DNA of 61,788 bases, taken from assembly GCA_027618255.1 (NCBI GenBank), contig JAQCFG010000002.1, positions 1 to 61,788 of the forward strand, given 5' to 3'. Positions 8,605 to 58,412 of the stretch are shown one piece after another. Every line of letters begins with the position of its first letter. Within the stretch, counting starts at the first letter, position 1. The notes beneath the pieces are model-generated. The model did not search any database, was not told where the DNA came from, and saw only the letters and a program-made list of their open reading frames with translations. A program made the position numbers and the translations under genes. The DNA is from Cyanobacteriota bacterium (lineage in GTDB: Bacteria > Cyanobacteriota > Vampirovibrionia > LMEP-6097).

Positions 8605-8761
8605 TTCGCTGCCTTTGGAGATAATTCCGACTTTCAAAACAAGTCTATTAGACCTCTTTCGAAACCGAAGGTTTCGTGTAATGAGGTCTTACAAAAGACC
8701 CAAAATCGAAGATTTTGGTAGAGTTCTTTCAGTCCCATTTATGGGTTTCGAAAGAACTCTA
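8605..8761 (+). repeat. composite of four nested hairpin elements (family-1 3' end 8605-8647; 8649-8691; 8692-8718; 8719-8761)
   Basis: Near-identical inverted copy at 54309-54467 (about 3 mismatches in the central 120 nt). Confidence 0.9.
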
Positions 8762-13367: not shown

Positions 13368-13406
13368 TAGATTTTCTGTGAAAGTTGCTTCTAATATACT
13401 TCCCGC

Positions 13407-13459
13407 GAAAGTCCTCTTTATCTTTACTAACGGAACTAGTGCTTCGCACCGTTCCGACC
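13407..13459 (-). repeat. family D hairpin repeat, copy 1
   Basis: About 46/52 identical to reverse complement of 58616-58667. Confidence 0.8.
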
Positions 13460-13469
13460 TTCTCTGTAT

Positions 13470-13507
13470 CGACATCACTAGCAAAACAAAGTTTTGCAGG
13501 ATGTCTA
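13470..13507 (-). repeat. family-1b single-hairpin mini element
   Basis: CGACATCACTAGCAAAACAAAGTTTTGCAGGATGTCTA matches the hairpin-1 module of 13737-13848. Confidence 0.85.
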
Positions 13508-13705
13508 GTGATCCGAAGAATCATAAATCTTGTTAATTGCTTCAAGTATCGGTTTTGGAGGATCTGGATCTTCCTTGGTATCCTCTTTAATTTGTTTAGC
13601 AATTCTAGCTAAGTCTTTAGTTAACTCATAAATATTTGGCTCTTGGTCTGTTAAGTCACTCAAGAGTGCATGAGTTAGGTGATGTTCGTCGTGCTTTTTG
13701 GTCAT
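13505..13705 (-). CDS. hypothetical small acidic protein (66 aa)
   Basis: ATG ORF; stop codon TAG is the terminal TAG of repeat 13470-13507. Confidence 0.4.
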   Translation of the reverse strand: MTKKHDEHHLTHALLSDLTDQEPNIYELTKDLARIAKQIKEDTKEDPDPPKPILEAINKIYDSSDH

Positions 13706-13736: not shown

Positions 13737-13848
13737 TAGACTTACTGCAAAAGTCGGAATTCTCCTTAAAGCAAACGCAACATTCGTTGCGGTTGCTACC
13801 TTTTTTAAAGCGACATCACTAGCAAAACGGGGTTTTGCAGGATGTCTA
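13737..13848 (-). repeat. family-1b MITE-like three-hairpin element, full length (112 bp)
   Basis: TAGAC...GTCTA ends; nearly identical to 18835-18946. Confidence 0.9.
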
Positions 13849-17772: not shown

Positions 17773-17794
17773 ACATCCTTATTCTACCTGGTTG

Positions 17795-17913
17795 CCCTCC
17801 GGTGCCCCGGGGCCGCGTCTCCCCTGTTCGCTTTTCAACATAATCAACTTATCTACCTTGCATATTATCGTGAAAAGTGAACAGGGGAGACGCGGCCCCG
17901 GGGCACCGGAGGG
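17795..17913. repeat. 119-bp GC-rich near-perfect palindrome (35-bp perfect arms, imperfect extension)
   Basis: 17795-17829 CCCTCCGGTGCCCCGGGGCCGCGTCTCCCCTGTTC is the exact reverse complement of 17879-17913. Confidence 0.95.
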
Positions 17914-17969
17914 CACCTACGTGATTGCCCCTATGGCCATAGCTGACTGACTATAGTAAAATCTAATCA

Positions 17970-18791
17970 ATGGCTGTTGAAGAAAAAATATCTTTATCTG
18001 AAAAGAACTTACAAGGTTTTGTGAATCTTTTACAAGATTCATCAGCTTCTACTTTGAATTTAATGGGGCAGCAGATAAGCAAACTCGATGATGTCAGTCT
18101 TCGTGGCATTGAAGAGATTGTCGGCAAGCTTGATAATGATCAACTTGAAGGGAATTGGTACCACGCTAGCAAAGTTGCTTTGCTTGCACAAATTCAAGAT
18201 TGGAAGAGCGATGGCGATTTAGAACGTGGTTTGTTTTTGATTTCACGTTTGCGTAATCCTGGTTTAGATCTCAAAAAATATCAATCGATTTTAGATGGTT
18301 ACGCTGCCAGAGTCGCTGCTAAGCTCAGTCCTTCTAGTTCAACGACTCACGCAATTGAGGCACTTAACGAAGTACTTTTTAGAGAAGAGGTTTATGTGGG
18401 TAATCAATCTGATTACTATGATCTTGACAACAATTTTTTGCATACTGTCATTGACAACAAAGCTGGTAATCCAATTATGCTCTCGTCAATTTATATTTTA
18501 GTGGGGCGCAGGCTAGGACTTGATATCAAAGGTATTGGCACGCCAGGACATTTTATTGTGACTTTTGAAGATAAATTAATTGATCCATTTTTTCAAGGAA
18601 AAGAAATTACCAAAAATGAATGTGTCCTTAGAGCCCAAGAGCTTAGTGTTTATTGGAGGGAAGAATACCTACATCCAATAGATGATGCGTTTATCATTTC
18701 TCGTTGTATTCGCAATATTGTTGCTATTTACAAAAAACAAAATGAATTTGAAAAAGCTGCTGATGCTACTAATATATTGAAATTAGTTTAA
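17970..18791 (+). CDS. SirB1/YchA-type transglutaminase-like protein
   Basis: GNPIMLSSIYILVGRRLGLDIKGIGTPGHFIV core typical of the family. Confidence 0.65.
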   Translation: MAVEEKISLSEKNLQGFVNLLQDSSASTLNLMGQQISKLDDVSLRGIEEIVGKLDNDQLEGNWYHASKVALLAQIQDWKSDGDLERGLFLISRLRNPGLDLKKYQSILDGYAARVAAKLSPSSSTTHAIEALNEVLFREEVYVGNQSDYYDLDNNFLHTVIDNKAGNPIMLSSIYILVGRRLGLDIKGIGTPGHFIVTFEDKLIDPFFQGKEITKNECVLRAQELSVYWREEYLHPIDDAFIISRCIRNIVAIYKKQNEFEKAADATNILKLV

Positions 18792-18834: not shown

Positions 18835-18946
18835 TAGACTTACTGCAAAAGTCGGAATTATACTTAAAGCAAACGCAACATTCGTTGCGGTTGCTACCTT
18901 TTTTAAAGCGACATCACTAGCAAAACGGGGTTTTGCAGGATGTCTA
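18835..18946 (-). repeat. family-1b MITE-like element, full length (112 bp)
   Basis: Differs from 13737-13848 only around GGAATTATACTT vs GGAATTCTCCTT. Confidence 0.9.
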
Positions 18947-19162: not shown

Positions 19163-19840
19163 TTAACTCACTTGAAGACTCTCAATTAATTGAGGATCTT
19201 CTAATTCAGTAAGCCATTGATAAATTAGTTCGATGCTACCACTGAGCATTGTAGCTATAGTCTCGTGTTCTTTTTTTGGAAAGATACTAAGTACATAGTC
19301 AGCTCTACTTTCACCACCTGGGTCTGGTCCTACACCAGCTTTAAGGCGGTGAAAGTTTTTACCAATACTAGCCATAATATCTTCCACCCCGTGTTGCCCG
19401 CCAGCACCTCTATTGAAAGCCATACGCAGCTTGCCGGTGTCGAGGCTGACATCATCATGAATTACTAGAATGTCTTCAGCTGCGATTTTGTAAAACTTAG
19501 CTAGTTTGGAGACGGCTTTGCCGGAGTTGTTCATGAAGGTAGTCGGTTTCGCTATGATGATTTTGCAGCCTAGCAGCCTAGCTTCATCTTCTGCATTAGC
19601 CCCAGGATCTGGAAGCTTTTCAGCTAGGCTTTTAGTTTTAGGTTTTTTGAGTCTATATTCAACAATCACATCAGCCATCGCCACATCGGCTTCAAACTTT
19701 TTTTCTTTACTAAAACTAAGCCCTCGCTTAAAAGCTAGCTCATCAAGAATTGCAAAACCAATATTGTGCCTAGTCTTGTCGTAGTTCTTTCCTGGGTTGC
19801 CCAGTCCTATTATGAGTTTTGTTTTTTTATCTATCGACAT
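19163..19840 (-). CDS. pth: peptidyl-tRNA hydrolase (with ~30-aa internal insertion)
   Basis: LIIGLGNPGKNYDKTRHNIGF and FMNNSG motifs. Confidence 0.9.
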   Translation of the reverse strand: MSIDKKTKLIIGLGNPGKNYDKTRHNIGFAILDELAFKRGLSFSKEKKFEADVAMADVIVEYRLKKPKTKSLAEKLPDPGANAEDEARLLGCKIIIAKPTTFMNNSGKAVSKLAKFYKIAAEDILVIHDDVSLDTGKLRMAFNRGAGGQHGVEDIMASIGKNFHRLKAGVGPDPGGESRADYVLSIFPKKEHETIATMLSGSIELIYQWLTELEDPQLIESLQVS

Positions 19841-20993
19841 CTGGCAAAATCACATCTAGTGATGAAAATACAGCCACGACATCTGAGATCGGCGTGCCTT
19901 CAGCAAGCTCAGGCAAGTAAGCTGTTGGAAACCAGCTTGGAGAGCGCCATTTGAGTCTGTAAGGTACTTGAGTACCGTCAGCAATTAGATGGACGCCCAT
20001 CTCGCCGCGAGGTGATTCAACAGCCTCATAAGCCTCTCCTGCTGGTGCTTTAAATCCAGGAAGGATTTTTTTAGCTTTGAGTTCTGTTTCAGCTTGTGCG
20101 TGTTCTCCGCCAGGAAGTGCACGGATCTTTTTGATTGCCTGAAGAATGATTTTGCAACTCTCTCTAATTTCTTGCACTCTACATTTATAGCGAGCAAAAA
20201 CATCACCGCGGTCATGAGTGACAACATCAAAATCAAACTCTTCGTATTTAGAATATGGTTTATTGCGGCGCACGTCGTAGTTAACACCAGAAGCACGAAT
20301 ATTAGGACCCGTAAGTCCCCATTCAATTCCTTTCTGCGGCTCGATGACGCCAATACCTTTGGTTCTTACAGCTACAATAGGATTGTTAGTCACAAGATCT
20401 TCGTATTCATCAGTATAGTGAAGTAACTTAGTGTTGATCAATTCTTCAAGTTTGGCGTACCAACCAGTTGGCACATCCATATGTACTCCGCCAATACGCA
20501 TATAGTTAAACATCATTCTTTGTCCAGAGACTTCTTCTAACAGAGAAAGAATTGACTCTCGATCGCGAAAAGCATAAAACGGGAAGCCCATCATCGCACC
20601 AAGGTCAAGCATGAAAATCCCCAAAGACAGTTGGTGAGAGCAAATACGGTTAAGCTCACTCATTAGGATACGTAAGTATTCAGCACGATCCGGGACTTTA
20701 AGATCAGCAAGTTTTTCTACAGCCAGTACATAGGCGTGTGAGTCAGACATTCCAGCAAGATAGTCAACTCTGTCTACCAGCGCTTGGTATTGAACAAAGT
20801 TGCGGTTCTGTGCCAGCCATTCCATACCACGATGCAAGTAACCGATCACTGGCACGCATTTGGTAACAAGCTCACCAGTTGTGGTAATTACCAATCTCAA
20901 AACACCATGTGTTGAAGGGTGTTGAGGCCCCATATTTATAATGAGCTCTTCGGTTTTTAATCCTGTACTAGTATCTTGATCGAGTATCGCCAT
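19827..20993 (-). CDS. nuoD: NADH-quinone oxidoreductase subunit D (NdhH-like), not flanked by other nuo genes
   Basis: NMGPQHPSTHGVLRL, IGYLHRGMEWLA, 49-kDa subunit C-terminus. Confidence 0.9.
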   Translation of the reverse strand: MAILDQDTSTGLKTEELIINMGPQHPSTHGVLRLVITTTGELVTKCVPVIGYLHRGMEWLAQNRNFVQYQALVDRVDYLAGMSDSHAYVLAVEKLADLKVPDRAEYLRILMSELNRICSHQLSLGIFMLDLGAMMGFPFYAFRDRESILSLLEEVSGQRMMFNYMRIGGVHMDVPTGWYAKLEELINTKLLHYTDEYEDLVTNNPIVAVRTKGIGVIEPQKGIEWGLTGPNIRASGVNYDVRRNKPYSKYEEFDFDVVTHDRGDVFARYKCRVQEIRESCKIILQAIKKIRALPGGEHAQAETELKAKKILPGFKAPAGEAYEAVESPRGEMGVHLIADGTQVPYRLKWRSPSWFPTAYLPELAEGTPISDVVAVFSSLDVILPDVDR

Positions 20994-21021
20994 AGCTAGA
21001 TACTATGATACTATTGATTTC

Positions 21022-22071
21022 GTGATTCAAGAAGCTACTACTAACGCAAGAGCAAAGTTAGATAAGACTACTGCCCAGCAGCGTTACCAGCCTTATGAGA
21101 ATTTGGATATTGATCTAATTGCGGCGCCTTGGGGTTTTGGTGGTACTGATAATTTGGCGCAAGAGGGAGCGCATGCACTTTTGGCTGAGCAAGACCTCGT
21201 CAAACAACTTGCTGCAATTGGTGCCAACGCTGTTGAAATTCATCCACCATCACTCGGTCCTTTTGAAATTCAAGAAGAAGCTAATAGAGTGCGCAATCTC
21301 AAGGCGATTCACACAGTTAATAACTGGCTAGCTGACCAAGTTAAGTCATCTCTTAAAGCGGGACATGTGCCGATTACTTTTGGCGGTGATGGTTCACTTT
21401 GTCTTGGTACTGTTGCTGGTCTATTGGAATATTGCATGGAGTCTAACGCGGCAGATGAGACTATTGGAGCTTGCTTCGGGATAATTTGGATTAGTAATCA
21501 CTTGTGCAACAGCTCCCCTCGTGTAACCAAGAGTTGGAATGCCAATCGTATGGTTTTTACTGCTCTAACATTTGATGGTGATCCGAAGCACAATGATTTT
21601 ATTTCTCTGATGACATTCCGCGGGCTTGGCACCAAAACCAAATCAATGATGATGCCAAATCAAATTGTGCATTTTGGTATCAATCACAAATCTGCTCAGG
21701 AAGAAGCTGTTCACGAGTTTTATACCATGGAAGATATTGAAGAGATTGGAGTGCGCAAAGCAATCAACTTTGCAATTGATCATTTCAAAGATTTTGATAA
21801 AGTACATGTGATCCTTGATGTCAACGCATTAGATTTGAGCGCGGTGAGTAATTATTCTTTGGGACAATTGAGTTACCGTGAGGCTATGACCATTGCTCGT
21901 GAGCTTGATCTCAATTTGCGCCGCAAAGGTAAACTAAGTTCAATTGATATTGTCGAGCATTGTCCTAGTCGCGAGGCTTGGGACAAGAAAGGCGAAACTG
22001 CTGAATGGGTTATGGATTTTATAACTAATATTTTTGGTGAGAATATATTTAACGCTGCTAGGAAGTATTAA
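21022..22071 (+). CDS. arginase-fold protein with degenerate metal-binding motifs (probable non-catalytic paralog)
   Basis: GGDGS (for GGDHS), ISNHLCN (for DAHxD), LDVNALD (for DxDxxD); GTG start. Confidence 0.6.
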   Translation: MIQEATTNARAKLDKTTAQQRYQPYENLDIDLIAAPWGFGGTDNLAQEGAHALLAEQDLVKQLAAIGANAVEIHPPSLGPFEIQEEANRVRNLKAIHTVNNWLADQVKSSLKAGHVPITFGGDGSLCLGTVAGLLEYCMESNAADETIGACFGIIWISNHLCNSSPRVTKSWNANRMVFTALTFDGDPKHNDFISLMTFRGLGTKTKSMMMPNQIVHFGINHKSAQEEAVHEFYTMEDIEEIGVRKAINFAIDHFKDFDKVHVILDVNALDLSAVSNYSLGQLSYREAMTIARELDLNLRRKGKLSSIDIVEHCPSREAWDKKGETAEWVMDFITNIFGENIFNAARKY

Positions 22072-22083
22072 AACTTGCTCCTC

Positions 22084-22243
22084 GGAGCTTGTCATCCAGC
22101 CCCACTTTTCAACTAAAAATACTCCAAAATATTAAGAACTCATTTAAGTGGGGCTGAACGCCAAGCTCATAAAATCAATTGCCAACTCCGCTGTGCTCCG
22201 CATGGTAATTGATTTTATTAATATGGGCTGGGTTACACGCTCC
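22084..22243. repeat. structured intergenic element with ~19-nt terminal inverted repeats and two internal hairpins
   Basis: GGAGCTTGTCATCCAGCCCC (22084-22103) vs GGGCTGGGTTACACGCTCC (22225-22243), 16/19 complementary; internal CAGCCCCACTT/AAGTGGGGCTG and AAAATCAATT/AATTGATTTT. Confidence 0.6.
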
Positions 22244-22322
22244 TTGCAGCTCCAATAACAGCGTTGTTCTTCAAGCTCTGGAAACAAATTTGGGTTTGAG
22301 CTAGGTATTTAGTTGATTTTCA

Positions 22323-22904
22323 TTGCTTCTTAACCAAAAGCTAACCTCGCTCTGCTCTAATAGCTACGTGAGCCAAGTAAACCAAAATTCACAACTAAAG
22401 CAACTCAGTTTAGAGGATAAACTGTGCCGTGAAAATCAACTACATAAGCAGTTAGAACCGCTTAAACAGCAGCTTGAAATGGTACGCAAAACAGGCCCTG
22501 TCAACGGTATCTCTGTTGAGAATATCGCAGCTTTAATCGAGACACATCGAGAGCATCTTGGCGACTTGAGATATTTCATTGATGCAGAGATCACACTAGC
22601 TTCAGTAGATGAAATCCCTAATTTGAAATCCAAAGTCGATGACTATTTAGCTAGATATGGCAAGCTTCAAACCAACTCTGAGACGGTATCTCATACTAGA
22701 TTTGATAGTATGTCATCTCGGGAAGCAGTACAAATTAGATTAATACAAGATGCCGTAACCAAGCCTATTTTTTTTGGCAATGGTAAGAAAGACTTTGATT
22801 CATGGGACAAAGGCGGCAAGGGCGAGAGTTATATTCAAAGAACCGAAGACATGAAACAAGGCTTATTCAACTTAATGTCTATTCGTGAACAAAATTTAGC
22901 ATAA
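22323..22904 (+). CDS. hypothetical protein (start uncertain, TTG)
   Basis: 193-aa ORF; no motif recognised. Confidence 0.4.
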   Translation: MLLNQKLTSLCSNSYVSQVNQNSQLKQLSLEDKLCRENQLHKQLEPLKQQLEMVRKTGPVNGISVENIAALIETHREHLGDLRYFIDAEITLASVDEIPNLKSKVDDYLARYGKLQTNSETVSHTRFDSMSSREAVQIRLIQDAVTKPIFFGNGKKDFDSWDKGGKGESYIQRTEDMKQGLFNLMSIREQNLA

Positions 22905-22916
22905 TTATTTCTAACT

Positions 22917-23038
22917 AAATGGAGACCCCGGGTATCGTCATTTTTAATCTTTGATTTCAAAAAACTTTTTAATACAGCCTATAATCACCAAAGAACGAAT
23001 TGATTCTTGAAAAATGGAGATACCCGGGGTCTCCATTT
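22917..23038. repeat. 122-bp element with 20-bp terminal inverted repeats containing CCCGGG
   Basis: AAATGGAGACCCCGGGTATC (22917-22936) vs GATACCCGGGGTCTCCATTT (23019-23038). Confidence 0.9.
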
Positions 23039-23213
23039 TTAATATTGCTTTTTTATTAAAACAAAAGCTTGACTTCTGTCTATACATAATGCTAAGATTC
23101 TATCTTGTAAATACATCTAAATTTTGCTAAGAAATTAGGTGTTTTTACCCAGGTCGTTGTAATATAGATATACGTTACTCAGCATTTATATGCTAAGATG
23201 ATGTAAATCAGTC

Positions 23214-23888
23214 ATGGAGTACCGAGTGAGCACCCCTATAAGCAGCAATTCAGCTATCGATGAGCTTACAACAAGTTCTGCAGTTGGTAGTTTTGGTAAA
23301 GCAAGACTAGACCCACGTGCTGGTGTCGAATCTGTTCGTGCCGGGCAAAAAGCCAGTATTGCAGAAGAATCGCAACAGACTTTGCTTGAACCAGCTATCG
23401 AAGGTGAGGGTGAAATTGAGCTTGAGCTTGACTTACGCAACACCGATGAGTTTGCTCCTTATGACGCTAAGCGCGATAAAGACAAAGACAAAAATCAAGG
23501 TCAGCACAAACGTAGACAACGCCGTATCGGAAAGGCCAAGGGCGCAAACGCTCTTGACGACGAGGATTACGACGAAGAGGATGTGCATGGCTTCCTTGGA
23601 TTTTTAGATCAATTATGGCAACGACTCACGGAATTAGTTGAAGATGTTGCAGAAGAATTTGATAATTGGAACAAATGGTTCAAAAAAGAAAAGGTCAAAC
23701 CACCTGCACCAGACCGTTCTAGAGTTACTTATATCAGAGACGAGTATCAAGCAAATAGAAGTCCTCACCTCTGGAAGTCAGACCCTGACCGCAAGTGGAT
23801 ACTTGCGTTTGGTGCAAACAAGATTAATAATGTAGTCACTTCAATTTTGCATAAGTATCAAAACGAGACTATTTCTAAAGATGCTTAG
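23214..23888 (+). CDS. hypothetical charged protein (224 aa)
   Basis: ATG ORF with acidic and basic low-complexity tracts; no motif. Confidence 0.5.
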   Translation: MEYRVSTPISSNSAIDELTTSSAVGSFGKARLDPRAGVESVRAGQKASIAEESQQTLLEPAIEGEGEIELELDLRNTDEFAPYDAKRDKDKDKNQGQHKRRQRRIGKAKGANALDDEDYDEEDVHGFLGFLDQLWQRLTELVEDVAEEFDNWNKWFKKEKVKPPAPDRSRVTYIRDEYQANRSPHLWKSDPDRKWILAFGANKINNVVTSILHKYQNETISKDA

Positions 23889-23920
23889 TTGAGCCCGTCT
23901 TCGCTGGGCCTACGAGGCGG

Positions 23921-23965
23921 CTAGCCATAATCATATACCCCCGGGGGGTATATGATTATGGCTAG
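23921..23965. repeat. 45-bp perfect palindrome (22-bp arms)
   Basis: CTAGCCATAATCATATACCCCC-G-GGGGGTATATGATTATGGCTAG. Confidence 0.95.
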
Positions 23966-24021
23966 ATTATCGACATTTCTATCAACAATCATGAAGCTAC
24001 TACTATATATAACTGTAAGTC

Positions 24022-24321
24022 ATGACAAACAACACAATTACTAACCTACATAAACAAGCTAAGGAGAACCTATTAAAGAACACCTTAGTACAGGATATCC
24101 GCGCTAGCATCCAGGAGATTGCAAATAAATTGCCTGACCTGATGGGACGCGTGGATATCACTGGGCATTTTAGATTAAAGCAACTCAAACAAACTGCTTT
24201 AAGGCGCATGAACAAAAAGCGCGGCAAATTTAAATTAGCACTCGAGTCTTTGGGCTGGGGTACTCTCGTTGATCTTCTTGAGTCTGCGTTTTGCGGGCAG
24301 GAAGTTGATGTTTGGGTTTAA
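24022..24321 (+). CDS. hypothetical protein (99 aa)
   Basis: ATG ORF; no motif. Confidence 0.4.
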   Translation: MTNNTITNLHKQAKENLLKNTLVQDIRASIQEIANKLPDLMGRVDITGHFRLKQLKQTALRRMNKKRGKFKLALESLGWGTLVDLLESAFCGQEVDVWV

Positions 24322-24342
24322 GTAATCTGCTTGCATAACAAC

Positions 24343-25707
24343 TTACTTCGTAAGTATTTTATTTCTTTTATGCTCTTGTTTCGGTCTTGCAATTGCAAGC
24401 GTGTCTTCAGGCACATCTTTAGTTACAACTGAACCAGCTGCAATTAAACTTCTTTCGCCAATTTTGATCGGTGCAATTAATACTGAGTTGGCACCTGTCG
24501 ACACACCAGCGTTGATAACGGTTTCGTATTTTTCACCAGTACGGTGGTCGTAGTTTGCAATGATAGTCCCTGCGCCTACGTTGACGTCGTTTTTGAGTTT
24601 GGCGTCACCGACATAGCTTAAGTGAGCAGCTGCGCAGTTGTCGCCGATTGCTGAATTTTTGATTTCAACGAAGTTGCCCACTCTTACATTGTCACAGATA
24701 TCAGAGCCGTCACGTATATGTGCAAATGGTCCTACCATTGCGTTTGCACCAATTGTACTTCTTGAAATGTGCGATTGCATTACTTGTGAGTTGTCACCAA
24801 TTTCTGCTGGTCCATAAATACTTGTGTTGGGACCTATTGTGCAGCCTTTGCCGATTACTACTCGTCTTTGTATAAAAGTGTTGGGAAGTATTACCGTATC
24901 TTCACCGATATCAGCATCGGAACTAATAAAAGTCGAAGCTGGATCAACGATGGTGATGCCGTTTTGCATTAAATCGTGGAGAGTTGCTTCGTTTTTGAGT
25001 TTCCAAACAAGCGATAAATCTTCCCTCGTATTTACTCCGAGCACTTCGTATGGATTTTTGAGATTGCATGAGCTAATCTCGTGACCTTGCGAGTCAGCCC
25101 AGCTGATGATATCAGTGAGGTAGTATTCTTCTTGAGCATTATCGTTTTTGAGTTTGTTCAAACCTTCTTCAACGGTGCTCCATTCAAAACAGTAAACTCC
25201 AGCATTAACTTCTTTGATTTGCCTTTCAGCTTCGCTGCAATCCTTATCTTCTTTGATGGCAAGGATGCGTTTGTCTTTGCGAATGACTCTGCCGTATCCA
25301 TCTGGGTGGTTTAGGTGGCAGCTCAGAAAACTTATATCAACAATATTGTCTTGGTGAAATTTGATCATGTCATTGAGGGTTTCTGACCTAATGAGCGGCG
25401 AGTCGCCATTGATGACCAGTACAGTGCCGTCATAGCCTTGAAGTTGTTCTCTGACACACATTAAGGCGTGTCCGGTACCGAGTTGTTCTTCTTGGATCAC
25501 GGTTGAGACTGGGTAGGCATGAAGAAAGCTCTTGACTTCTTCTGCTTGGTGCCCGCAAACCACAATTATTTCTTCACTATCTACTTCTGCTAGGCTTTCC
25601 AAAACCCAAGAAAGTATAGGTTTATCAAAGATTCGGTGCAATACCTTAACTTTGTCTGATTTGAGACGGGTGCCTGTTCCTGCTGCTAATACAACGGTTT
25701 TTACCAT
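24343..25707 (-). CDS. glmU: bifunctional UDP-N-acetylglucosamine pyrophosphorylase / glucosamine-1-phosphate N-acetyltransferase
   Basis: LAAGTGTRLKS N-terminal motif and C-terminal hexapeptide repeats. Confidence 0.95.
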   Translation of the reverse strand: MVKTVVLAAGTGTRLKSDKVKVLHRIFDKPILSWVLESLAEVDSEEIIVVCGHQAEEVKSFLHAYPVSTVIQEEQLGTGHALMCVREQLQGYDGTVLVINGDSPLIRSETLNDMIKFHQDNIVDISFLSCHLNHPDGYGRVIRKDKRILAIKEDKDCSEAERQIKEVNAGVYCFEWSTVEEGLNKLKNDNAQEEYYLTDIISWADSQGHEISSCNLKNPYEVLGVNTREDLSLVWKLKNEATLHDLMQNGITIVDPASTFISSDADIGEDTVILPNTFIQRRVVIGKGCTIGPNTSIYGPAEIGDNSQVMQSHISRSTIGANAMVGPFAHIRDGSDICDNVRVGNFVEIKNSAIGDNCAAAHLSYVGDAKLKNDVNVGAGTIIANYDHRTGEKYETVINAGVSTGANSVLIAPIKIGERSLIAAGSVVTKDVPEDTLAIARPKQEHKRNKILTK

Positions 25708-25738
25708 CTTGCAATATTAGCACGCCTAGTATCACCCC

Positions 25739-25784
25739 AAGCACACCCCGGGTATCACAAATTTGTGATACCCGGGGTGTGCTT
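25739..25784. repeat. 46-bp perfect palindrome sharing ACCCCGGGTATC with 22917-23038
   Basis: AAGCACACCCCGGGTATCACAAA|TTTGTGATACCCGGGGTGTGCTT, followed by TTCTTT. Confidence 0.95.
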
Positions 25785-26037
25785 TTCTTTATAATTTCTT
25801 TATCAAGTAAAGACTAGACACTAGGTTTAGACTCTGTTAGTATGGATAGAACCGACATTCAAGTCCGCATCTTTCCAAGTTTCTGTATCAAACTTGGTTT
25901 CTGGAAGCAATTACGTTTCCTAGAGTAAAAATTTTATTCGACAATTCAACCCGTTGATACGCTAGCAAGTCTTGCGTCAGATTTATTCTGGCGCAGAGGC
26001 TTGATTTCTACGAGATTGAATCATGAATAATCAGTAA

Positions 26038-26150
26038 TAGACCTGTTTCGAAACAAAGTTTCGATGTACAGGTCGATCAAAAAAAGGTAGCAACCGCAAG
26101 GAACGTGCGTGTTGCCTTTGGAGATAGTTTAGGCTTCCAAAACAAGTCTA
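26038..26150 (+). repeat. family-1a MITE-like three-hairpin element, full length (113 bp)
   Basis: Same length and architecture as 39591-39703; TAGACCTGTTTCGAAAC...TTCCAAAACAAGTCTA. Confidence 0.9.
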
Positions 26151-26187
26151 ATATTTATCTGAGGGGATAAGGAAGGAAAGAAGAGAT

Positions 26188-26355
26188 ATGGGCATGGCAA
26201 CATTATTATTAACATCAGCAACATTATTAAGTGGTCTTGCGACAGCAGCGCAAATGCCTGGACGTTGTGAAGATACTTCTTCTTCTGTTGTTGGACGTGC
26301 TACTAGAGGAAATTTTAGTTCAAGAGATATGGGAGTATCTTTAGCTAAGAAATAA
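26188..26355 (+). CDS. possible small membrane/secreted peptide (55 aa), below ORF-track cutoff
   Basis: ATG preceded by purine-rich GGAAGGAAAGAAGAG; hydrophobic N-terminus MGMATLLLTSATLLSGLATAA. Confidence 0.3.
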   Translation: MGMATLLLTSATLLSGLATAAQMPGRCEDTSSSVVGRATRGNFSSRDMGVSLAKK

Positions 26356-26360
26356 GCTGC

Positions 26361-27956
26361 CTAAACAGCAACTGCTTTAGAATCCATTATTTTTTGACCA
26401 TTTAGTTTTTCTGATTTATGAAGTACAACTTGAGGATCTAATCCAGCTTCTTTGAGTTTGGCTTCAAGCATTTTTTCATTACGTTTGGCTTCTAATTTAT
26501 CTTCGTGCGCTGCGACGATTTGATCGAGCTTGGCACGTTTGGCTGCTGAACTGGCTTTGCCCTGTTCTGCTAGGCTATATAATTCTGCAGGAAGTGTGAA
26601 ACATTTTTTGACAAATAAGCCAAGAGCTTTCAGGTAGCCTCCGTCTTGTTCTGATCTTGCTTCATGTTCATGTTTCTGGATATCAACATCGTACATGTTT
26701 TTGATATTGGGATTGAAGATACCACTTTCCATCGCAAATGGAATTGGCATTTTGCTGTAAATATTTTTGGTAAGGAATTTCAACAATGGTTTAGTTACAT
26801 CTTCCATACCCTGAGTAAATGGTTTGAGCAATTTATGACTTAGGAAACTCCATTCATCAGTCATGCGACTTTCTTTGGCAATGCGCATTAAGCCGGATGT
26901 TAAAAAGCTAGCAGGGATTTCAGCAAATACTCTAAATATCATCGCTAAGGTGGCACCATTCATAAAAGGAACTCGGTAAGAGAGAATAGCAGCAGCTGCG
27001 TCACAAAAGTATTGCACCATTGGTACAAAGGTTCTGTTCTGAACAGCTGTCTCCAAGCAGGCGTCGAAGTTTTTGCCTTCAGTGTGAATGCCTGTTGCAC
27101 TGGTAATAATAGTTGAATTTAAACGACAAAAGGTAGTGAAGAGAATAGCACTAAGACCACGTAATGGACTTTTTACAGCGTCAAAACCATAGGCTTGAGT
27201 GTTCTTTGGAAGCAACAACATTGAGCCAAGGAAGGTACTACCTGTAACTCCTCCTAGCCATTTGTAATTAACATGCGGCGCGGACAATAAAGCCTTGCCA
27301 TCTTTTTTGAGAATTTGATTACCCTCTGAATCAATGATTGGAGTACCACTAGTTACACCAAGACAAATAGAAAAGATTTTGTCCATTTTGGTTTTGAGGT
27401 TCTTGTGGAAGAATTCACTGAATTTATCAACCCATTTAATAAATGGTTGTTTCATCACCTCATCCCTAAGTGCTTCTTCTTCTGGACTTAAGTTATGCTT
27501 GGCTGATTTTTTGTCGACGTTAAATTTCTGTGTAACAGTCCTAGCCAATAATACAGAAGGTATTGAGAAGAGTTGATTGGAAAGTTCTGGCATTAAGTAT
27601 GGTATCTTGATCCCCAGAAATGAGGTTTTGCCATTGAAAACTCTAACTGCAAGAGTGTTAACAATGTCACAAAGAAACCTTGATGGCAGATCATTCATAC
27701 AGGTCTTGTAAATGATTTCATCCATCGTTTGCTTAGAGTCTTTGAGTAAATTACTCAAGACAGTTGCAAGAAATGAACCCGACAAAATTTTGGGAATAGT
27801 TTTGAGAATGTCGTAACCAATACCAACAGCAAAATATTTTTCATCAAGACTTGGAGTCTCTGCTTTGCTTGTTTTAGTTGGACTAGATTTAGCCGTGCTA
27901 GTGCCAGAAGACCCAGAGCTCTTTGCTAGGTTTGCAGATTGTAATTTTGGAATCAT
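26361..27956 (-). CDS. hypothetical membrane-associated protein (531 aa)
   Basis: Ser/Thr-rich N-terminus, several hydrophobic segments, Lys-rich coiled-coil C-terminus. Confidence 0.6.
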   Translation of the reverse strand: MIPKLQSANLAKSSGSSGTSTAKSSPTKTSKAETPSLDEKYFAVGIGYDILKTIPKILSGSFLATVLSNLLKDSKQTMDEIIYKTCMNDLPSRFLCDIVNTLAVRVFNGKTSFLGIKIPYLMPELSNQLFSIPSVLLARTVTQKFNVDKKSAKHNLSPEEEALRDEVMKQPFIKWVDKFSEFFHKNLKTKMDKIFSICLGVTSGTPIIDSEGNQILKKDGKALLSAPHVNYKWLGGVTGSTFLGSMLLLPKNTQAYGFDAVKSPLRGLSAILFTTFCRLNSTIITSATGIHTEGKNFDACLETAVQNRTFVPMVQYFCDAAAAILSYRVPFMNGATLAMIFRVFAEIPASFLTSGLMRIAKESRMTDEWSFLSHKLLKPFTQGMEDVTKPLLKFLTKNIYSKMPIPFAMESGIFNPNIKNMYDVDIQKHEHEARSEQDGGYLKALGLFVKKCFTLPAELYSLAEQGKASSAAKRAKLDQIVAAHEDKLEAKRNEKMLEAKLKEAGLDPQVVLHKSEKLNGQKIMDSKAVAV

Positions 27957-28115
27957 AAGACTTCTTGTGAAATCTCTTTTCTCCGTTGATTATGTTCTTT
28001 TGAAATACTTGGCCACTACGCTAGTGCTGGCCAAATACGTATGTATTCAATTGAACTATTCGTCAATACTTACGTGTTGACATGTTTAATTATATAGGAA
28101 TAGAGCCATAATTTG

Positions 28116-28982
28116 CTAGCCTTTAAAATGTTTATAGATTTTAGCTTTAGTTAATAATTCGCCATTGAGGCTAATTTGACCGCTGCCTGCTTGGGCTTTA
28201 CCGATGACCTTGAAGCCATTAGGTGCTTTCATGCATATTGCCACTAGTTCGTAGTCCTCACCGCCGTAGAGCGCTTGTTCAAGGCTAATTCCTTGACTAT
28301 AGGGGATTGCAGTAGAGTCAATCTCTAGGTCAAGCTGGTTTTGCTCAGCTAGTTCAAACAATGCTTGCGCTAAACCATCACTGCTATCCATTAAGGCAGC
28401 TTGAGAATCAGTCTCTAGCAGTGCTTGAGCCTCTTGAAGTCGCGGTTCTGGTCTTAGGTGTTTTGCCGGGCAGGGCTTAGTAGTATTTTGCAAGAAATCT
28501 CCCGTCTCGCCAAAACTACCTGTGACACAAACCAAACTACCTGGCTGAGAGGATTTGCGCATTAGAGCTTTAGTTGCTTTGCCGACTATGGCAATTGAGA
28601 TACTGGTTTTGGCACTTGAGCCACAAATATCTCCACCAATGACTTTGGGATTGCCAAAGGCTGCAGCGCATTGATTGAGCCCGGTATAAAAATCCTTAAC
28701 CCATGTTGTTTTGTCATGAATAGAATCGCTAAGACTAAGCCCAACCAAAATAAACAAGGGTTCACCTGCCATTGCTGCAATGTCTGAAATGTTGACGGCT
28801 AGTGCTTTCCAGCCAATATCTTCTACACTAAAATAATCATTACTATAATGAACATCCTCTACAAAATTGTCCAATGCAAAAAGATATTGCTGGTTGCCAA
28901 GTTCAATGACGGCACAGTCGTCACCGATGAGGCTTGGGTCTTGGACCATGGATTGAATCGTTTGGATTAATTGTTGTTCCAT
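28116..28982 (-). CDS. thiL: thiamine-monophosphate kinase
   Basis: IGDDCAVI N-terminal motif and AIR-synthase-like fold signatures. Confidence 0.8.
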   Translation of the reverse strand: MEQQLIQTIQSMVQDPSLIGDDCAVIELGNQQYLFALDNFVEDVHYSNDYFSVEDIGWKALAVNISDIAAMAGEPLFILVGLSLSDSIHDKTTWVKDFYTGLNQCAAAFGNPKVIGGDICGSSAKTSISIAIVGKATKALMRKSSQPGSLVCVTGSFGETGDFLQNTTKPCPAKHLRPEPRLQEAQALLETDSQAALMDSSDGLAQALFELAEQNQLDLEIDSTAIPYSQGISLEQALYGGEDYELVAICMKAPNGFKVIGKAQAGSGQISLNGELLTKAKIYKHFKG

Positions 28983-28997
28983 TGCTCTTAATTGTAA

Positions 28998-29071
28998 GGC
29001 ATGCGTTTCGCATGGTTGCTACCTTTTTTAAGCGACCTGTATCTTCGAAACGCTGTTTCGAAACAGGTCTA
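28998..29071 (-). repeat. family-1a element, 5' two-thirds only
   Basis: Reverse complement reads TAGACCTGTTTCGAAACAGCGTTTCGAAGATACAGGTCGCTTAAAAAAGGTAGCAACCATGCGAAACGCATGCC. Confidence 0.85.
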
Positions 29072-29101
29072 AGAAACTTAATTAGGAGTTATAATGACCC
29101 C

Positions 29102-29575
29102 ATGAAAGCAATCTATGCAGGAAGTTTTGATCCACTTACCTTGGGACATTTGGATATCATCCAAAGAGCTTCCAAGATTTTTGCTGAGGTATTGGTTTTA
29201 ATTTCAGAGAACAATGACAAGTCTGGGCATATCCCCGTTGAGGACAGGGTTGCATTGATTGATGAAGCAACCAAGGATTTGCCTAATATCAAAGTCGGTG
29301 TACATAGCGGTTTGGTTGTGGAATATGCCAAAGCTAATTCATATGATTGCTTGCTGAGAGGGATGCGTGCAGCTTCGGATTTCGAAGGTGAGCTTGAGTT
29401 GTCCCAGATTAATCATGCGCTTTCTGATGGTTTAGAGACTATCTTTTTGATGACTAATCCAGGATATTCGTTTATGAGAGCGAGCCGGGTTTGGGAATTA
29501 CTCAAATATAGCGATGATTTATCGCTTTTGGTGCCTGAGAATGTTGCACTTTACATAAACACCAAATACAGATAA
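29102..29575 (+). CDS. coaD: phosphopantetheine adenylyltransferase
   Basis: MKAIYAGSFDPLTLGHLDII; start moved to ATG 29102 because the upstream ORF part reads through the repeat. Confidence 0.9.
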   Translation: MKAIYAGSFDPLTLGHLDIIQRASKIFAEVLVLISENNDKSGHIPVEDRVALIDEATKDLPNIKVGVHSGLVVEYAKANSYDCLLRGMRAASDFEGELELSQINHALSDGLETIFLMTNPGYSFMRASRVWELLKYSDDLSLLVPENVALYINTKYR

Positions 29576-34493: not shown

Positions 34494-34517
34494 TAGACCT
34501 GTTTCGAAACAGGTCTA
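34494..34517. repeat. 24-bp minimal family-1a palindrome
   Basis: TAGACCTGTTTCGAAACAGGTCTA; its last 3 nt are the stop codon of the adjacent gene. Confidence 0.9.
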
Positions 34518-36393: not shown

Positions 36394-36496
36394 ATACCAC
36401 TAGCGTATTTTTCTTAAGCGCATTTTTACTGGGATCAATTTCTAATATTTTTCGTCAGCTAGTCTAGGGCAAGCAGTAAGCTTGCTTTGTATATAC

Positions 36497-37729
36497 ATGA
36501 ATAATTACAAATATTTAGCAAGAACCGCCAAGGGAGCAACTAAATCTGGTCAGATAGAAGCCAATAATATTGAGCTTGCCAAGTTCTCGCTGAAGAAGCA
36601 AGGACTTTGGGTGATAAATATCACTTCATTGAGCTCGAAGAAAACGGGTTCGGGTGCAAAGAAACGAGAAGGGCCAGGCTTCTTTGAGAAAAAGATTGAA
36701 CTTAGAGACATGGTGATTTTTTCTCGACAGTTTGCTTCGATGATTGAAGCTGGTATTGCGATGCTTCGTGTGATCACAGTTTTGATTGATCAAACAGAAA
36801 ATCCACGATTAGTAAAAATGCTTGAAGAAGTTAAGATGGATATTGAACAAGGTATTCCACTTTCGGAGTCTTTGGGTAAATTCCCAGAAGCTTTTGATCG
36901 ACTTTATGTTTCGATGGTTAAGGCTGGTGAGGCTGGTGGTGTACTCGACAAAGTACTTAATAGATTAGCTGGTTTCCTTGAATCAAGAAGTAAATTGACT
37001 CACAAAGTTAAAACAGCAATGACTTATCCAATTTCGGTTTTGATTATTTCTACGATTGTTGTTTGGGTGATGTTGACTTTCATCTTGCCGAAGTTTTCTG
37101 CGATTTTTGAAAGTACTGGTAGTGATCTACCTGCCTTCACGCAACTACTTATTGACGCAAGTAATTTTATACGCTCACCTTGGATACTCTTGGTTGGAGT
37201 GATCGTTTGGTTTATTTATAACGCAATTCTATCTTGGTATGAAACTCCTAACGGAAGATACACGCTGGATAATTTAACTCTCAAGCTACCGGTGTTTGGA
37301 GATATTTTTCGCAAAGTTGCGGTTGCTAGATTTACTCGCACCTTTGGAACCTTAATTGAATCTGGAGTGCCCATTATTACAGCGCTTGAAGTTGTTAAAG
37401 AATCAGCCGGCAATGCTGTGCTGGAGCGTGTTGTAGAAGAAATAAAAGCAGAGACGCAAGAGGGTGGGGAAATTTCAACTCAACTTGCCAAGTCTGATAT
37501 TTTTCCGCCGATGGTAACTCAAATGGTTGCAATTGGTGAAGAGTCTGGTGAATTAGAAACTATGCTTTCTAAGATTGCTGATTTTTATGATGATGAAGTT
37601 GATACCGCTGTTGAGTCACTCACTGCATTGATGGAACCAATTTTTATTGTTGTGCTTGGTGGTATCGTTGGTACTATTCTTGTTGCGATGTACTTGCCAA
37701 TCTTTAATGTGATTAAGACGATACAGTAG
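36497..37729 (+). CDS. pilC: type IV pilus assembly platform protein PilC (T2SS-F family)
   Basis: Two T2SSF repeats, three TM segments, conserved GE.SG.L..ML. Confidence 0.85.
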   Translation: MNNYKYLARTAKGATKSGQIEANNIELAKFSLKKQGLWVINITSLSSKKTGSGAKKREGPGFFEKKIELRDMVIFSRQFASMIEAGIAMLRVITVLIDQTENPRLVKMLEEVKMDIEQGIPLSESLGKFPEAFDRLYVSMVKAGEAGGVLDKVLNRLAGFLESRSKLTHKVKTAMTYPISVLIISTIVVWVMLTFILPKFSAIFESTGSDLPAFTQLLIDASNFIRSPWILLVGVIVWFIYNAILSWYETPNGRYTLDNLTLKLPVFGDIFRKVAVARFTRTFGTLIESGVPIITALEVVKESAGNAVLERVVEEIKAETQEGGEISTQLAKSDIFPPMVTQMVAIGEESGELETMLSKIADFYDDEVDTAVESLTALMEPIFIVVLGGIVGTILVAMYLPIFNVIKTIQ

Positions 37730-37763: not shown

Positions 37764-37828
37764 CTTAGACTTGGGTTTCCCATGCAAGGTGACTTCGTCA
37801 CCCAATTATCGGACTCAGTTCCTTTAAG

Positions 37829-37900
37829 GATTCACTGAAAAATACAAAGTCTCAACCCTTATCTGTCACGTGCTCTGTACGGGCAGAACCTTTTTTCATA
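37829..37900 (-). repeat. family B repeat, partial copy
   Basis: Matches reverse complement of 44093-44165. Confidence 0.8.
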
Positions 37901-38844: not shown

Positions 38845-40371
38845 ATGAAGGATCTTGGACAATACACAGATATCCACTACGATTCACGACAAGTGAGTCC
38901 AGGTTCTATCTTTGTTGCAATTATTGGTGATGATGTTGATGGTCATGATTATATTAAAGCTGCAATAAATAAAGGAGCAGTTTTAATTATTGCTGAAAAA
39001 CAAATTACTGTGCCAGAGGGGATAGAGCTTTGTGTTGTTGAAGACTCTCGTCAAGAGCTTGCTAGACTTAGTTCTGACTTTTACGGCAAGCCAGATCAAA
39101 CGATTGACTTGATTGCAGTTACTGGTACTAATGGCAAAACTACTATGACGCATCTTTTGCAAGAGCTTTTGCCAAAGACCGCTTTGCTTGGAACCATGGG
39201 CCTCAAAACTTCTGCTAAAGCGGATTATGACGATCTTGGTAATACTACGCCTCAGTCTAAAGAGATTTATCGAATACTGGCTGATCTTGTTAATCACAAC
39301 TTTAAATATCTGGCAATGGAAGTGAGTTCTCACGCACTTGAACAAAAACGTGTCGCTGGACTTCAATACAAGGCGGCTGTGATAACTAATCTAACTCAAG
39401 ATCATTTGGATTATCACGTGACCATGGATAACTATTTTGAAGCGAAAGCCAAACTGTTCAAGCAAGTCAGCGAGTATGTGCTGCTCAATGCCGATGATGA
39501 ATATTACGAGCGTTTCAAAAATAAACTAGGTTCTTTAACAAGTTTTAGTTTCGCGCTGAATGCAGATGCTGATTATCAGGCGATTGATATTAGACCTGTT
39601 TCGAAACACAGTTTCGATGTACAGGTCGCTCAAAAAAAGGTAGCAACCGCGCGGAATGCGCGTGTTGCCTTTGGAGATAATTCCGACTTTCAAAACAAGT
39701 CTATCGAATATAACGCAGCTGGTATGAGCTATACCGTAGTTGCCAAGGGCAATAGGCTCGGCGAAGTGGCTTTGCAACTTAACGGTCAGTTTAATGTTTA
39801 TAATTCACTGGCTGCAATTGCAGTTGCACTTGAGGAAGGAATCAAGTTTGAAGATATTCAAAAACAACTTGCAAAGATTCCACCTGTGGCTGGACGTTTT
39901 GAAGTAATTCAAACTGAAACTAGTCCTACCTGTGTCGTTGACTATGCTCATAGCCCTGATGGATTATTGAATGTACTTCAAGGAGCAAGAGGCTTGGTGG
40001 ATCATGCTAACGACTCACGATTGATTTGTTTATTTGGTTGTGGCGGTGATAGAGACATCACCAAGCGTCCTAAGATGGGCACGATTGCTTATGACTTGGC
40101 TGACTATATTTATGTGACTTCGGACAACCCGCGTAGTGAGGATCCAGATCAAATCATTGCGGATATATTAACGGGGATTCCTGATTTGAATAAAGTCAAA
40201 GTCATTGCTGATAGGCGACAGGCAATTCAAGCTGCCGTTGCAGAAGCTAGGCAGGGAGATGTATTGGTGGTTGCTGGTAAGGGACATGAGGACTATCAAA
40301 TACTTAGAACTGAGACAATTCATTTTGATGATAGAGAAGAAGTAAGGAAGGGAATAGGGATGTGTAGTTAA
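38845..40371 (+). CDS. murE: UDP-N-acetylmuramoyl-L-alanyl-D-glutamate--2,6-diaminopimelate ligase carrying an in-frame repeat insertion
   Basis: VTGTNGKTT P-loop, Mur ligase middle and C-terminal DNPR motif (TSDNPRSEDP). Confidence 0.9.
   Translation: MKDLGQYTDIHYDSRQVSPGSIFVAIIGDDVDGHDYIKAAINKGAVLIIAEKQITVPEGIELCVVEDSRQELARLSSDFYGKPDQTIDLIAVTGTNGKTTMTHLLQELLPKTALLGTMGLKTSAKADYDDLGNTTPQSKEIYRILADLVNHNFKYLAMEVSSHALEQKRVAGLQYKAAVITNLTQDHLDYHVTMDNYFEAKAKLFKQVSEYVLLNADDEYYERFKNKLGSLTSFSFALNADADYQAIDIRPVSKHSFDVQVAQKKVATARNARVAFGDNSDFQNKSIEYNAAGMSYTVVAKGNRLGEVALQLNGQFNVYNSLAAIAVALEEGIKFEDIQKQLAKIPPVAGRFEVIQTETSPTCVVDYAHSPDGLLNVLQGARGLVDHANDSRLICLFGCGGDRDITKRPKMGTIAYDLADYIYVTSDNPRSEDPDQIIADILTGIPDLNKVKVIADRRQAIQAAVAEARQGDVLVVAGKGHEDYQILRTETIHFDDREEVRKGIGMCS
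39591..39703 (+). mobile_element. family-1a MITE-like element inserted in frame inside murE
   Basis: 113 bp, same architecture as intergenic copy 26038-26150; translated as RPVSKHSFDVQVAQKKVATARNARVAFGDNSDFQNKS. Confidence 0.9.
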
Positions 40372-44007: not shown

Positions 44008-44057
44008 TCAAATAGTTTAACAGCAGCCAAGACTTAGAACTAGAATTTGTTGCGTAT

Positions 44058-44165
44058 GGACACGCTGAAAAACGAAGTTTTTCTTGTCGGGTCCATGAAA
44101 AAAGGTTCTGTCCGTGCAGAGCACGTGACAGATAAGGGTTGAGACTTTGCATTTTTAGTGCATCC
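44058..44165 (+). repeat. family B repeat, full length (~108 bp)
   Basis: Imperfect ends GGACACGCTGAAAAACG / GCATTTTTAGTGCATCC; copies at 58413-58522 and 37829-37900. Confidence 0.85.
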
Positions 44166-44220
44166 TTATGAAAGACAGTACACTTTCACATGAAGCTTTA
44201 TGCGTATATAATGATAAAGA

Positions 44221-46003: not shown

Positions 46004-46323
46004 AAAAGCTAGCTTTGTGGATTTTGTTGTTTGGCATTACTTTTAGTATTGGCATTTATTTTAGTCGTGATTACAAATTTGAACACTACATGATTGAACC
46101 CAAGTCTGATCTTGTTAAGGCTTATAAAATTAATCTCAACCTTGCTGATTGGCGTGAGTACGAAAATCTACCAGGTATCGGTCCTACTTTAGCTCAGCGC
46201 ATTGTTGATGATCGCGCTGCTAATGGGCGCTTTAATGCCATTGAGGAATTGAAGAGGGTGTCAGGGATTGGTGAAGTGAAGTATCAAGTGCTTAGTGAAT
46301 TTATAACTCTTGAAGTACAGTAG
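46000..46323 (+). CDS. comEA: ComEA-type helix-hairpin-helix DNA-binding protein
   Basis: TM anchor plus INLNLADWREYENLPGIGPTLAQRIV; ATGA overlap with upstream gene. Confidence 0.75.
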   Translation: MKKLALWILLFGITFSIGIYFSRDYKFEHYMIEPKSDLVKAYKINLNLADWREYENLPGIGPTLAQRIVDDRAANGRFNAIEELKRVSGIGEVKYQVLSEFITLEVQ

Positions 46324-46441
46324 ACTTGTCCCAGAATGTCCAATAGCTGTGTTATGCTCACCCTTATTTGCTAGAGCAAACTTCGGGTAAACCCTTCGGG
46401 TTCTCGCAAGCCTTGCTCTTGAACATTCTGAAACAAGTCTA
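46321..46441 (-). repeat. family C MITE-like element (121 bp)
   Basis: TAGACTTGTCCCAGAATGTCCAATAGC...GCTCTTGAACATTCTGAAACAAGTCTA; first TAG is the comEA stop codon. Confidence 0.85.
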
Positions 46442-48878: not shown

Positions 48879-48936
48879 CAACCGCAACGATTTGCGTGTT
48901 GCCTCACTGGATAATTCCTTATTATGCGACAAGTCT
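48860..48936 (+). repeat. family-1a element, 3' two-thirds
   Basis: AGGTCGCTTAAAAAGATAGCAACCGCAACGATTTGCGTGTTGCC...GACAAGTCT. Confidence 0.8.
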
Positions 48937-54308: not shown

Positions 54309-54467
54309 TAGAGTTCTTTCGAAACCCATAAATGGGTCCGAAAGAACTCTACCAAAATCTTCGATTTTGGGTCTTTTGTAAGACCTCATTACACGAAACC
54401 TTCGGTTTCCAAAGAGGTCTAATAGACTTGTTTTGAAAGTCGGAATTATCTCCAAAGGCAACAGCGC
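54309..54467 (-). repeat. composite of nested hairpin elements, inverted copy of 8605-8761
   Basis: Same order of four sub-elements in reverse complement; further TAGAC fragments at 54497 and 54516. Confidence 0.9.
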
Positions 54468-58401: not shown

Positions 58402-58412
58402 AGCCACAATTA

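Follow-up and report, generated by a model that had tools for sequence, protein, structure and literature searches.

Rickettsia palindromic elements, reportedly described by Ogata et al. in 2000, are palindromic repeats of about 105–150 bp without a transposase of their own. They are found in frame within unrelated, even essential genes, which are left unbroken, the encoded peptide lying in a tolerated loop. Classical non-autonomous DNA transposons (MITEs), such as Correia (CREE) of Neisseria, ERIC, RUP and Nezha of Anabaena and Nostoc, are of similar size, carry terminal inverted repeats, duplicate their target and have a stable predicted fold. They are mostly intergenic with occasional ORF fusions, and filled and empty sites are seen between relatives. 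Correia and RUP use TA as their target, and Nezha matches ISNpu3. In-frame insertion into genes is documented for the Rickettsia elements, and occasional fusions for ERIC, RUP and Anabaena MITEs (PMC10969869, PMC3184786). REPINs are mobile hairpin repeats in which compensatory changes are common, the inverted terminal motifs are themselves palindromic, and distinct subfamilies co-exist (PMC3116915). SPRITE of Streptococcus pneumoniae is a repeat that resembles a Rho-independent terminator (PMC3184786).

The repeats described here, which run from TAGAC to GTCTA, resemble the Rickettsia elements in behavior, with no membership claimed and no relationship in sequence expected. The uncultured host belongs to the Melainabacteria, a non-photosynthetic sister group of the cyanobacteria, and not to Rickettsia; the elements carry clear terminal inverted repeats and a flanking duplication, and most copies are intergenic. 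The likeness to classical MITEs extends to all the features listed above. However, Correia and RUP differ in their TA target, as the ends here are TAGAC and the target is Y-A-W-T-R with the central base duplicated; the left end here has an extra inverted copy of the terminal motif; and, unlike Nezha with ISNpu3, the TAGAC family has no partner insertion sequence in the loci examined. The elements are short and multi-copy, contain no transposase, end in inverted repeats, show a flank duplication and have both filled and empty sites. We propose that they are probably MITEs of the Melainabacteria lineage, spread by an outside transposase. A MITE family with Rickettsia-like tolerance inside genes is a known kind of selfish DNA, of which this is a new example.

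The window, that is, the whole stretch of DNA analyzed, is the complete source contig of 61,788 bp, with a G+C content of about 40%. Three datasets (the window, the NCBI MAG GCA_027622095.1 and an ENA metagenome assembly) yielded this contig in independent assemblies that are 99.99% identical, and the public names of its proteins and their close homologues read "Cyanobacteria bacterium" or "Candidatus Melainabacteria bacterium". The nearest other genome, MAG SI037S4_bin4 (JABHOV01), is about 86% identical and syntenic over window positions 20840–28127, and GCA_028817775.1 (locus L046) is a more distant relative, at about 72–77% nucleotide identity. The gene content is ordinary housekeeping (acnA, glmU, murE, pth, thiL, dnaB and others). 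At the Rfam gathering threshold a tRNA-Gly is the sole match in the window, and the repeats match no RNA family. An intein that includes a LAGLIDADG homing endonuclease (Pfam domains Intein_splicing and LAGLIDADG_3) lies within the dnaB helicase gene (4810–7113, minus strand). Other palindromic families, unrelated to TAGAC, are located at 17786–17922, 22917–23038, 25739–25784 and 23921–23965. One of these palindromes is a 137-nt GC-rich, near-perfect hairpin beside the start of acnA, and several share a core of either CCCCGGGG or ACCCGGGGT; among these is a perfect 46-nt palindrome with a T-run behind it.

Four full TAGAC...GTCTA copies (112–113 nt), one diverged full copy, four fragments and one 24-nt palindrome are present in the window. 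The preliminary description had recognized a dispersed repeat family, which is confirmed by the 18-nt core AAAAAAGGTAGCAACCGC: it occurs six times with up to three mismatches, against 0.02 expected from shuffling. A profile search and the covariance model R1 recovered all copies listed earlier, each in its place. The family amounts to at least nine copies or fragments in these 61.8 kb, with copies at 10 other loci.

Both full copies of subfamily a are 113 nt long and lie on the plus strand. Copy a1 (26038–26150; model score 122 bits) is intergenic, between glmU and a gene for 531 aa. By folding, it consists of hairpin 1 (26040–26074), an A7 run (26079–26085), hairpin 2 (26083–26119) and hairpin 3 (26132–26148). 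Copy a2 (39591–39703) lies in frame within murE. The 112-nt copies of subfamily b are on the minus strand, b1 (13737–13848; 95 bits) between two minus-strand genes and b2 (18835–18946; 96 bits) between the convergent genes 17970–18791 (plus) and pth (minus). Copy c (13395–13507, minus; 79.6 bits) is the diverged one and combines a type-b hairpin 1 with a different hairpin 2 (CGGAAC...GTTCCG). Its TAG terminus (13505–13507) is the stop codon of a small gene (13512–13705, minus). What had been taken for a single minimal hairpin at 13470–13507 is hairpin 1 of this copy.

Truncated copies are also found. The one between thiL and coaD (28968–29071, minus; 63 bits) has kept hairpin 1 and the tip CATGCG/CGCATG, and its right end is gone. 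Another, matched by the covariance model (48858–48936, plus), has no hairpin 1, and the stop codon TAG (48876–48878) of the ORF 47628–48878 lies inside it. Two right-end fragments of subfamily a, at 8605–8647 (plus) and 54423–54467 (minus), were noted before and are indeed present, but it had been missed that each adjoins another 113-nt three-hairpin element. These are e1 (8649–8761, plus; 38.6 bits), which reads TAGACCTC...GAACTCTA and shares the junction TATTA with its neighbor, its terminal inverted repeats matching at 17 of 20 positions, and e2 (54309–54421, minus), a covariance model match. The 157-nt composite of a subfamily-a right end and a whole e element, joined at TATTA, is present twice, at 8605–8761 and 54309–54467, inverted and 45 kb apart. 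This pair suggests either that the ends of existing elements serve as targets for others or that composites are mobilized as one piece.

Element f (44056–44168, plus; 113 nt) has a hairpin 1, an A6 run with GGT, a hairpin 2 and a right repeat, with GGAC-type ends. The covariance model matched a second copy (58411–58525, minus), and a third, partial copy (37824–37899, minus) lies downstream of the gene 36482–37729. The e and f elements, found by the covariance model, have the layout of the TAGAC family and different sequences. The minimal element of 24 nt (34494–34517) consists of two subfamily-a terminal repeats fused into a perfect palindrome, TAGACCTGTTTCGAAACAGGTCTA, and the same palindrome stands in place of hairpin 1 in the copy at L044:6087. 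A separate 121-nt MITE (46321–46441, plus) has 31-nt terminal inverted repeats and a terminus, TAGACTTGT, common to the subfamily-a right end; its TAG (46321–46323) is the stop codon of the ORF 45961–46323 (plus).

The architecture of the element is dominated by its terminal motif. Next to the left terminal repeat (TAGAC and about 12 nt) stands its inverted copy, with which it pairs to form hairpin 1 (a left end reads, for example, TAGACCTGTTTCGAAAC). After an A6–7 run and the GC-rich hairpin 2 comes the right terminal repeat, which contains the small hairpin 3 and, read from the opposite strand, repeats the motif of about 15 nt a third time (TAGACTTGTTTTGAAAG). The terminal inverted repeats are imperfect, with 13–17 of 20 positions matching in subfamilies a, b, d and e. 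Coding capacity is limited to one open frame per strand. In subfamily b the terminal motif is swapped at all three places (TAGACATCCTGCAAAAC and TAGACTTACTGCAAAAG). Since the motif is present three times per element, the a-to-b switch of stems is largely one concerted event and not three. The tip of hairpin 2 has at least five palindromic alleles (CGCGC, CGCAAC, CGCA, CATGCG and CGCGCC), with GGTGC in copy c. The stem sequences of a and b and the first four of these tips read exactly as the preliminary description gave them. Its claim of compensatory change in three independent stems holds for the hairpin-2 tip, the only place with several independent compensatory alleles; it does not hold for hairpin 1 and the right end, which are largely one terminal motif.

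Each copy folds individually into the same three hairpins on either strand. The z-scores of intact copies range from −4.9 to −7.0, and two decayed copies score about −3. In the covariance-model alignment of 20 matches (18 distinct), standard pairs fill 88.3% of the cells, compared with 81.9% in column shuffles (none of 500 reaching the observed value) and 32–42% when partners are slid by 1–3 columns; 13 pairs are changed on both sides, as in 4 of 500 shuffles. With weaker relatives included (24 matches), the values are 86.4% against 73.6%, and 26 pairs have changes in both partners; both alignments are fitted to the model structure and hold few independent events, the a-to-b switch counting as one, so these figures support the fold as pair counts and are no formal test of covariation. 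Pairing in the three main helices amounts to 83–99%. A small fourth helix (GGA/TCC), 57–61% paired, was rejected as unsupported. Within subfamily a, a paired site has on average about 0.13 disruptive changes and an unpaired site about 0.38 changes; in addition, two double changes are compensatory. Copy a1 is kept at the orthologous site of the relative L005 with 5 changes in 113 nt, of which two are in stems, both leading to G-T wobbles. The folding z-scores and pair counts thus bear out the earlier view that the fold is kept while the sequence changes. Compensatory change is known in REPINs (PMC3116915), and therefore it is, by itself, no pointer to a new RNA.

The flanks of the elements carry a further signal. 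At 12 of 16 independent loci, the bases that immediately precede TAGAC and follow GTCTA are identical, both A or both T (p = 0.011 in a binomial and 0.006 in a permutation test), whereas the outer bases are complementary, and not identical, at only one of the 16. This flank base differs between b1 and b2, which are 97% identical, and is therefore target-derived. Farther out, the left flank is Y-A and the right flank T-R. To judge from these sequences, the pattern fits a putative odd-length duplication centered on W, either W alone (1 nt) or A-W-T (3 nt); its length is ambiguous, at 1 nt, 3 nt or, with a poorer fit, 5 nt, since the TA beside W can be assigned to the element or to the target. 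A 5-nt TAWTA duplication was rejected, as its two outer ends do not match at 8 of 14 loci. An origin from TA-duplicating IS630/Tc1-type elements, which had been raised earlier, is not borne out either: a TA is present at each end, but it is the next base outward that is repeated, with the frequencies given above, and a TA duplication in a palindromic target would be expected to make this base complementary on the two sides.

Comparison with relatives provides filled and empty sites. The murE site is filled in the window and empty in L027, the closest relative, and in the nine closest MurE homologues (one of them 87% identical), all of which lack exactly the a2 segment. L027 has GATATTAAATAT at its empty site, and the window has GATAT[TAGAC...GTCTA]TCGAATAT, a net gain of 114 nt; it is the one clean filled/empty pair, and its junction carries two substitutions. 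In L046 (GCA_028817775.1), the site of copy c is empty, and the flanking genes are 4 nt apart. Copy b2 is also absent from L046, its site there not being alignable, and no copy of the TAGAC...GTCTA family was found in 37 kb of that genome. In the relative of about 86% identity, copies are located at orthologous sites and at other sites. One copy that is present in L005 has been reduced in the window (27984) to its right end by an internal deletion, which shows how fragments arise; the extra segment of L005 was accordingly rejected as a clean insertion and left out of the duplication analysis.

Within the species, the window is identical to L030 and L031. An apparent deletion in L042 was rejected as a polymorphism, being a run of N, and differences between L007 and L040 were rejected as polymorphism of this family, being unrelated insertions. 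L040 and L007 are two assemblies of a related strain, 99.3–99.6% identical. A 150-nt insertion with direct TTAT repeat flanks, at the 3′ end of the P0125 gene (L040 9854–10003, compared with L007 1388), is polymorphic between them and represents yet another repeat family.

Y1-type transposases (IS200/IS605, RAYT) leave no target duplication, and the matched flank base at 12 of 16 loci therefore argues against mobilization of these repeats by such enzymes, which had been suggested earlier. A REPIN-like or IS200/IS605-like origin, in which folded single-stranded DNA is moved by a Y1 or RAYT transposase and the fold itself is the substrate, appears unlikely to us. It would account for the hairpins at both ends and for a fold kept through compensatory changes, as in REPINs (PMC3116915), and no DDE transposase was seen in the loci examined. 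Hairpin 2 is longer on the plus strand owing to two G-U pairs, and the stem changes of subfamily a favor G-T over A-C on one strand by 5 to 2, but this bias is not significant. REPINs also differ in their GTAG or CGTC tag. The ends here are TAGAC preceded by A or T, and a G before TAG is found only in the separate element at 46321. Furthermore, copies lie inside genes, and neither a Y1_Tnp gene nor a RAYT flanked by these repeats was found in the window or the fetched related loci.

The scanned ORFs of the window contain no transposase, RAYT or integrase domain, in agreement with the earlier conclusion that the elements are non-autonomous. The window and about 300 kb of related loci yielded no transposase bounded by matching ends. 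A partner transposon was also sought by tabulating all TAGAC-type ends across the related loci, and no pair brackets an ORF. The possibility of integron attC sites was rejected, as AGCAAC...GTTGCC misfits the R″/R′ boxes (RYYYAAC...GTTRRRY), and the copies are dispersed, with no cassette arrays and no integrase.

Public copies amount to a handful, in this lineage only, among 596 Gb of genomes, a metagenome collection and 1.84 billion protein representatives. A scan of the genome collection with the 18-mer gave 21 matches, of which three are real, all from one Melainabacteria MAG, the remainder being at chance level. A gapped-pattern scan of metagenomes gave two real loci, both equal to loci from the genome-collection scan, and six-frame peptide searches recovered a handful of proteins. 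A distant-mode search of a plasmid collection for the repeat returned zero matches. In PMC open-access and bioRxiv texts, the sole paper naming both Melainabacteria and MITEs is a general survey of insertion sequences.

The tolerance of these elements inside genes is best illustrated by the essential cell-wall gene murE (38845–40371, plus; 508 aa). Copy a2 had been listed as a full-length copy; it is present, and its in-frame location in murE had been missed. Despite the insertion, the ORF is intact and retains all three Mur ligase domains. The net 114 nt are translated as 38 residues, IRPVSKHSFDVQVAQKKVATARNARVAFGDNSDFQNKS. In the AlphaFold2 model, residues 253–291 have a pLDDT below 50 and lie between strands 244–251 and 294–300, so that the insert models as a disordered loop between two confident strands. 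Alignments with PDB structures break over residues 252–280. Because a 113-nt form lengthens the gene by 114 nt, which is divisible by three, and has one open frame per strand, copies can survive as in-frame peptides. Besides MurE, three proteins (P0121, P0122 and P0125) carry the same peptide in the same frame; the hosts are a 123-aa protein, a methyltransferase with the peptide at its C-terminus, and a 394-aa protein that has it in the middle. The opposite-strand peptide, part of the same protein query, gave no match. P0123, P0124, P0126, P0127 and P0129 are merely ORFs called over intergenic copies.

Within the murE frame, the heptamer A_AAA_AAG stands directly upstream of the stable hairpin 2 (39631–39665). 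This is a classical −1 slippery heptamer. A −1 shift at this candidate site would lead to a stop 15 codons later, and the frame is common to all in-gene copies.

Several other genes are affected by palindromes. The called starts of coaD (29012–29102) and of a solute-binding-protein gene (58417–58554) are extended upstream through element copies; their true starts are likely downstream of the copies (MKAIYAGSFD in coaD). In L027 (787–925), murE is called with an N-terminal extension of 14+4 residues, which is a translated palindrome of the GGGTCGTATCCTGACA type over the start codon. The N-terminal insert in the MurE of the relative (P0002) was rejected as a TAGAC element, since it is a different palindrome with GGGTCGTATCCTGACA ends. 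Compared with all solved Pth structures, pth (19163–19840) has an insert of about 31 residues (residues 55–86; window 19567–19660, minus). An inverted repeat (19567–19585/19612–19630) is present in its DNA, and a TATAGAC motif with an A6 run after it stands near the start; a palindromic element may have inserted here in frame long ago. In the distant relative L046, the pth product is likewise long (223 aa).

The middle third of the element resembles a terminator, a feature that the preliminary description had missed. On the minus strand, hairpin 2 is followed by ACC and a run of T6–7 in a, b, d and f, despite their different stems. Its folding energy is −13 to −22 kcal/mol in these subfamilies and about −10 to −12 kcal/mol in c and e, in which the T-rich run is shorter or interrupted. 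A simple terminator scanner calls sites in e and f. This arrangement of hairpin and T-run explains the strongly conserved block AAAAAAGGTAGCAAC, and provides one reason why pairing and not sequence is kept in hairpin 2. Judged on sequence features, hairpin 2 with its T-run would plausibly act as an intrinsic terminator. The closest precedent for such a module is SPRITE (PMC3184786), from which the elements differ in that only their middle third is terminator-like, with terminator function and placement bias both putative.

Several intergenic copies are placed just past stop codons in the terminating orientation. In e1, the hairpin and T-run (8718–8700, minus) lie 21 nt past the stop of a GH1 gene; in e2, the site (54352–54370, plus) follows the stop of a Fic gene at 54301; and the third f copy has its hairpin and T-run at 37871–37885 (plus), downstream of the gene 36482–37729. 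In all in-gene copies, the module is antisense to the gene.

Host-functional RNA or DNA modules, such as portable terminators, mRNA stabilizers or small RNAs, whose fold would be kept by host selection with mobility secondary or extinct, would explain the persistence of this module across different stems, as well as the position and orientation of e1, e2, b2, the copy at 48858 and the f copy at 37824. Together with its flanks, a1 is 94% identical to the orthologous region, compared with about 86% for the neighboring genes, which also agrees with host selection, and SPRITE supplies a precedent (PMC3184786). However, convergent genes flank most of the copies in such positions, so that a copy would qualify there in either direction, and between co-directional genes no orientation bias was found, with three copies terminating and three antisense. 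Many copies are truncated or decayed, others lie in coding sequences, where such a role does not apply, and no Rfam family matches. We therefore regard host function as an improbable origin of the family.

Subfamilies a to f share a constant 113-nt three-hairpin layout, with stem sequences that are almost unrelated. That this architecture is the folded single-stranded substrate of an undescribed, co-evolving mobilization system, or represents domesticated portable modules, seems doubtful to us. If the first were true, the system would co-evolve with the elements as RAYTs do with REPINs. If the second were true, the element would be an antisense-safe terminator, and the in-gene A_AAA_AAG with hairpin 2 could cause −1 frameshifting in murE. 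Chance similarity, an assembly artifact or terminal fragments of one annotated insertion sequence can practically be dismissed: the metagenomic source of the assembly is the only point in favor, whereas three independent assemblies agree at 99.99% identity, core-motif matches far exceed the shuffle expectation, copies recur in the relative of about 86% identity at orthologous and other sites, and no insertion sequence is in view.

For a MITE family, we propose the following course of events. A transposase encoded elsewhere in the genome would recognize the TAGAC termini, cut Y-A-W-T-R sites with a short stagger and insert the element there, which would duplicate the central A or T, as 1 nt or as the 3-nt A-W-T. 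Subfamilies may arise when the terminal motif is replaced at three places together and the tip of hairpin 2 is changed on both arms, and further spread would be confined to lineages in which the fold and the matched ends are preserved. The antisense orientation of all in-gene copies could result from the terminator-like module on the minus strand.

These elements also affect annotation, as their copies create "hypothetical proteins", N-terminal extensions (coaD and the solute-binding-protein gene) and stop codons. In a little-studied, free-living lineage, the family is a compact example of three things that are usually shown separately. Essential genes are colonized in frame, as with the Rickettsia palindromic elements; a terminal motif present three times per element is replaced in concert; and the elements carry a terminator-like module whose orientation may decide where copies persist.
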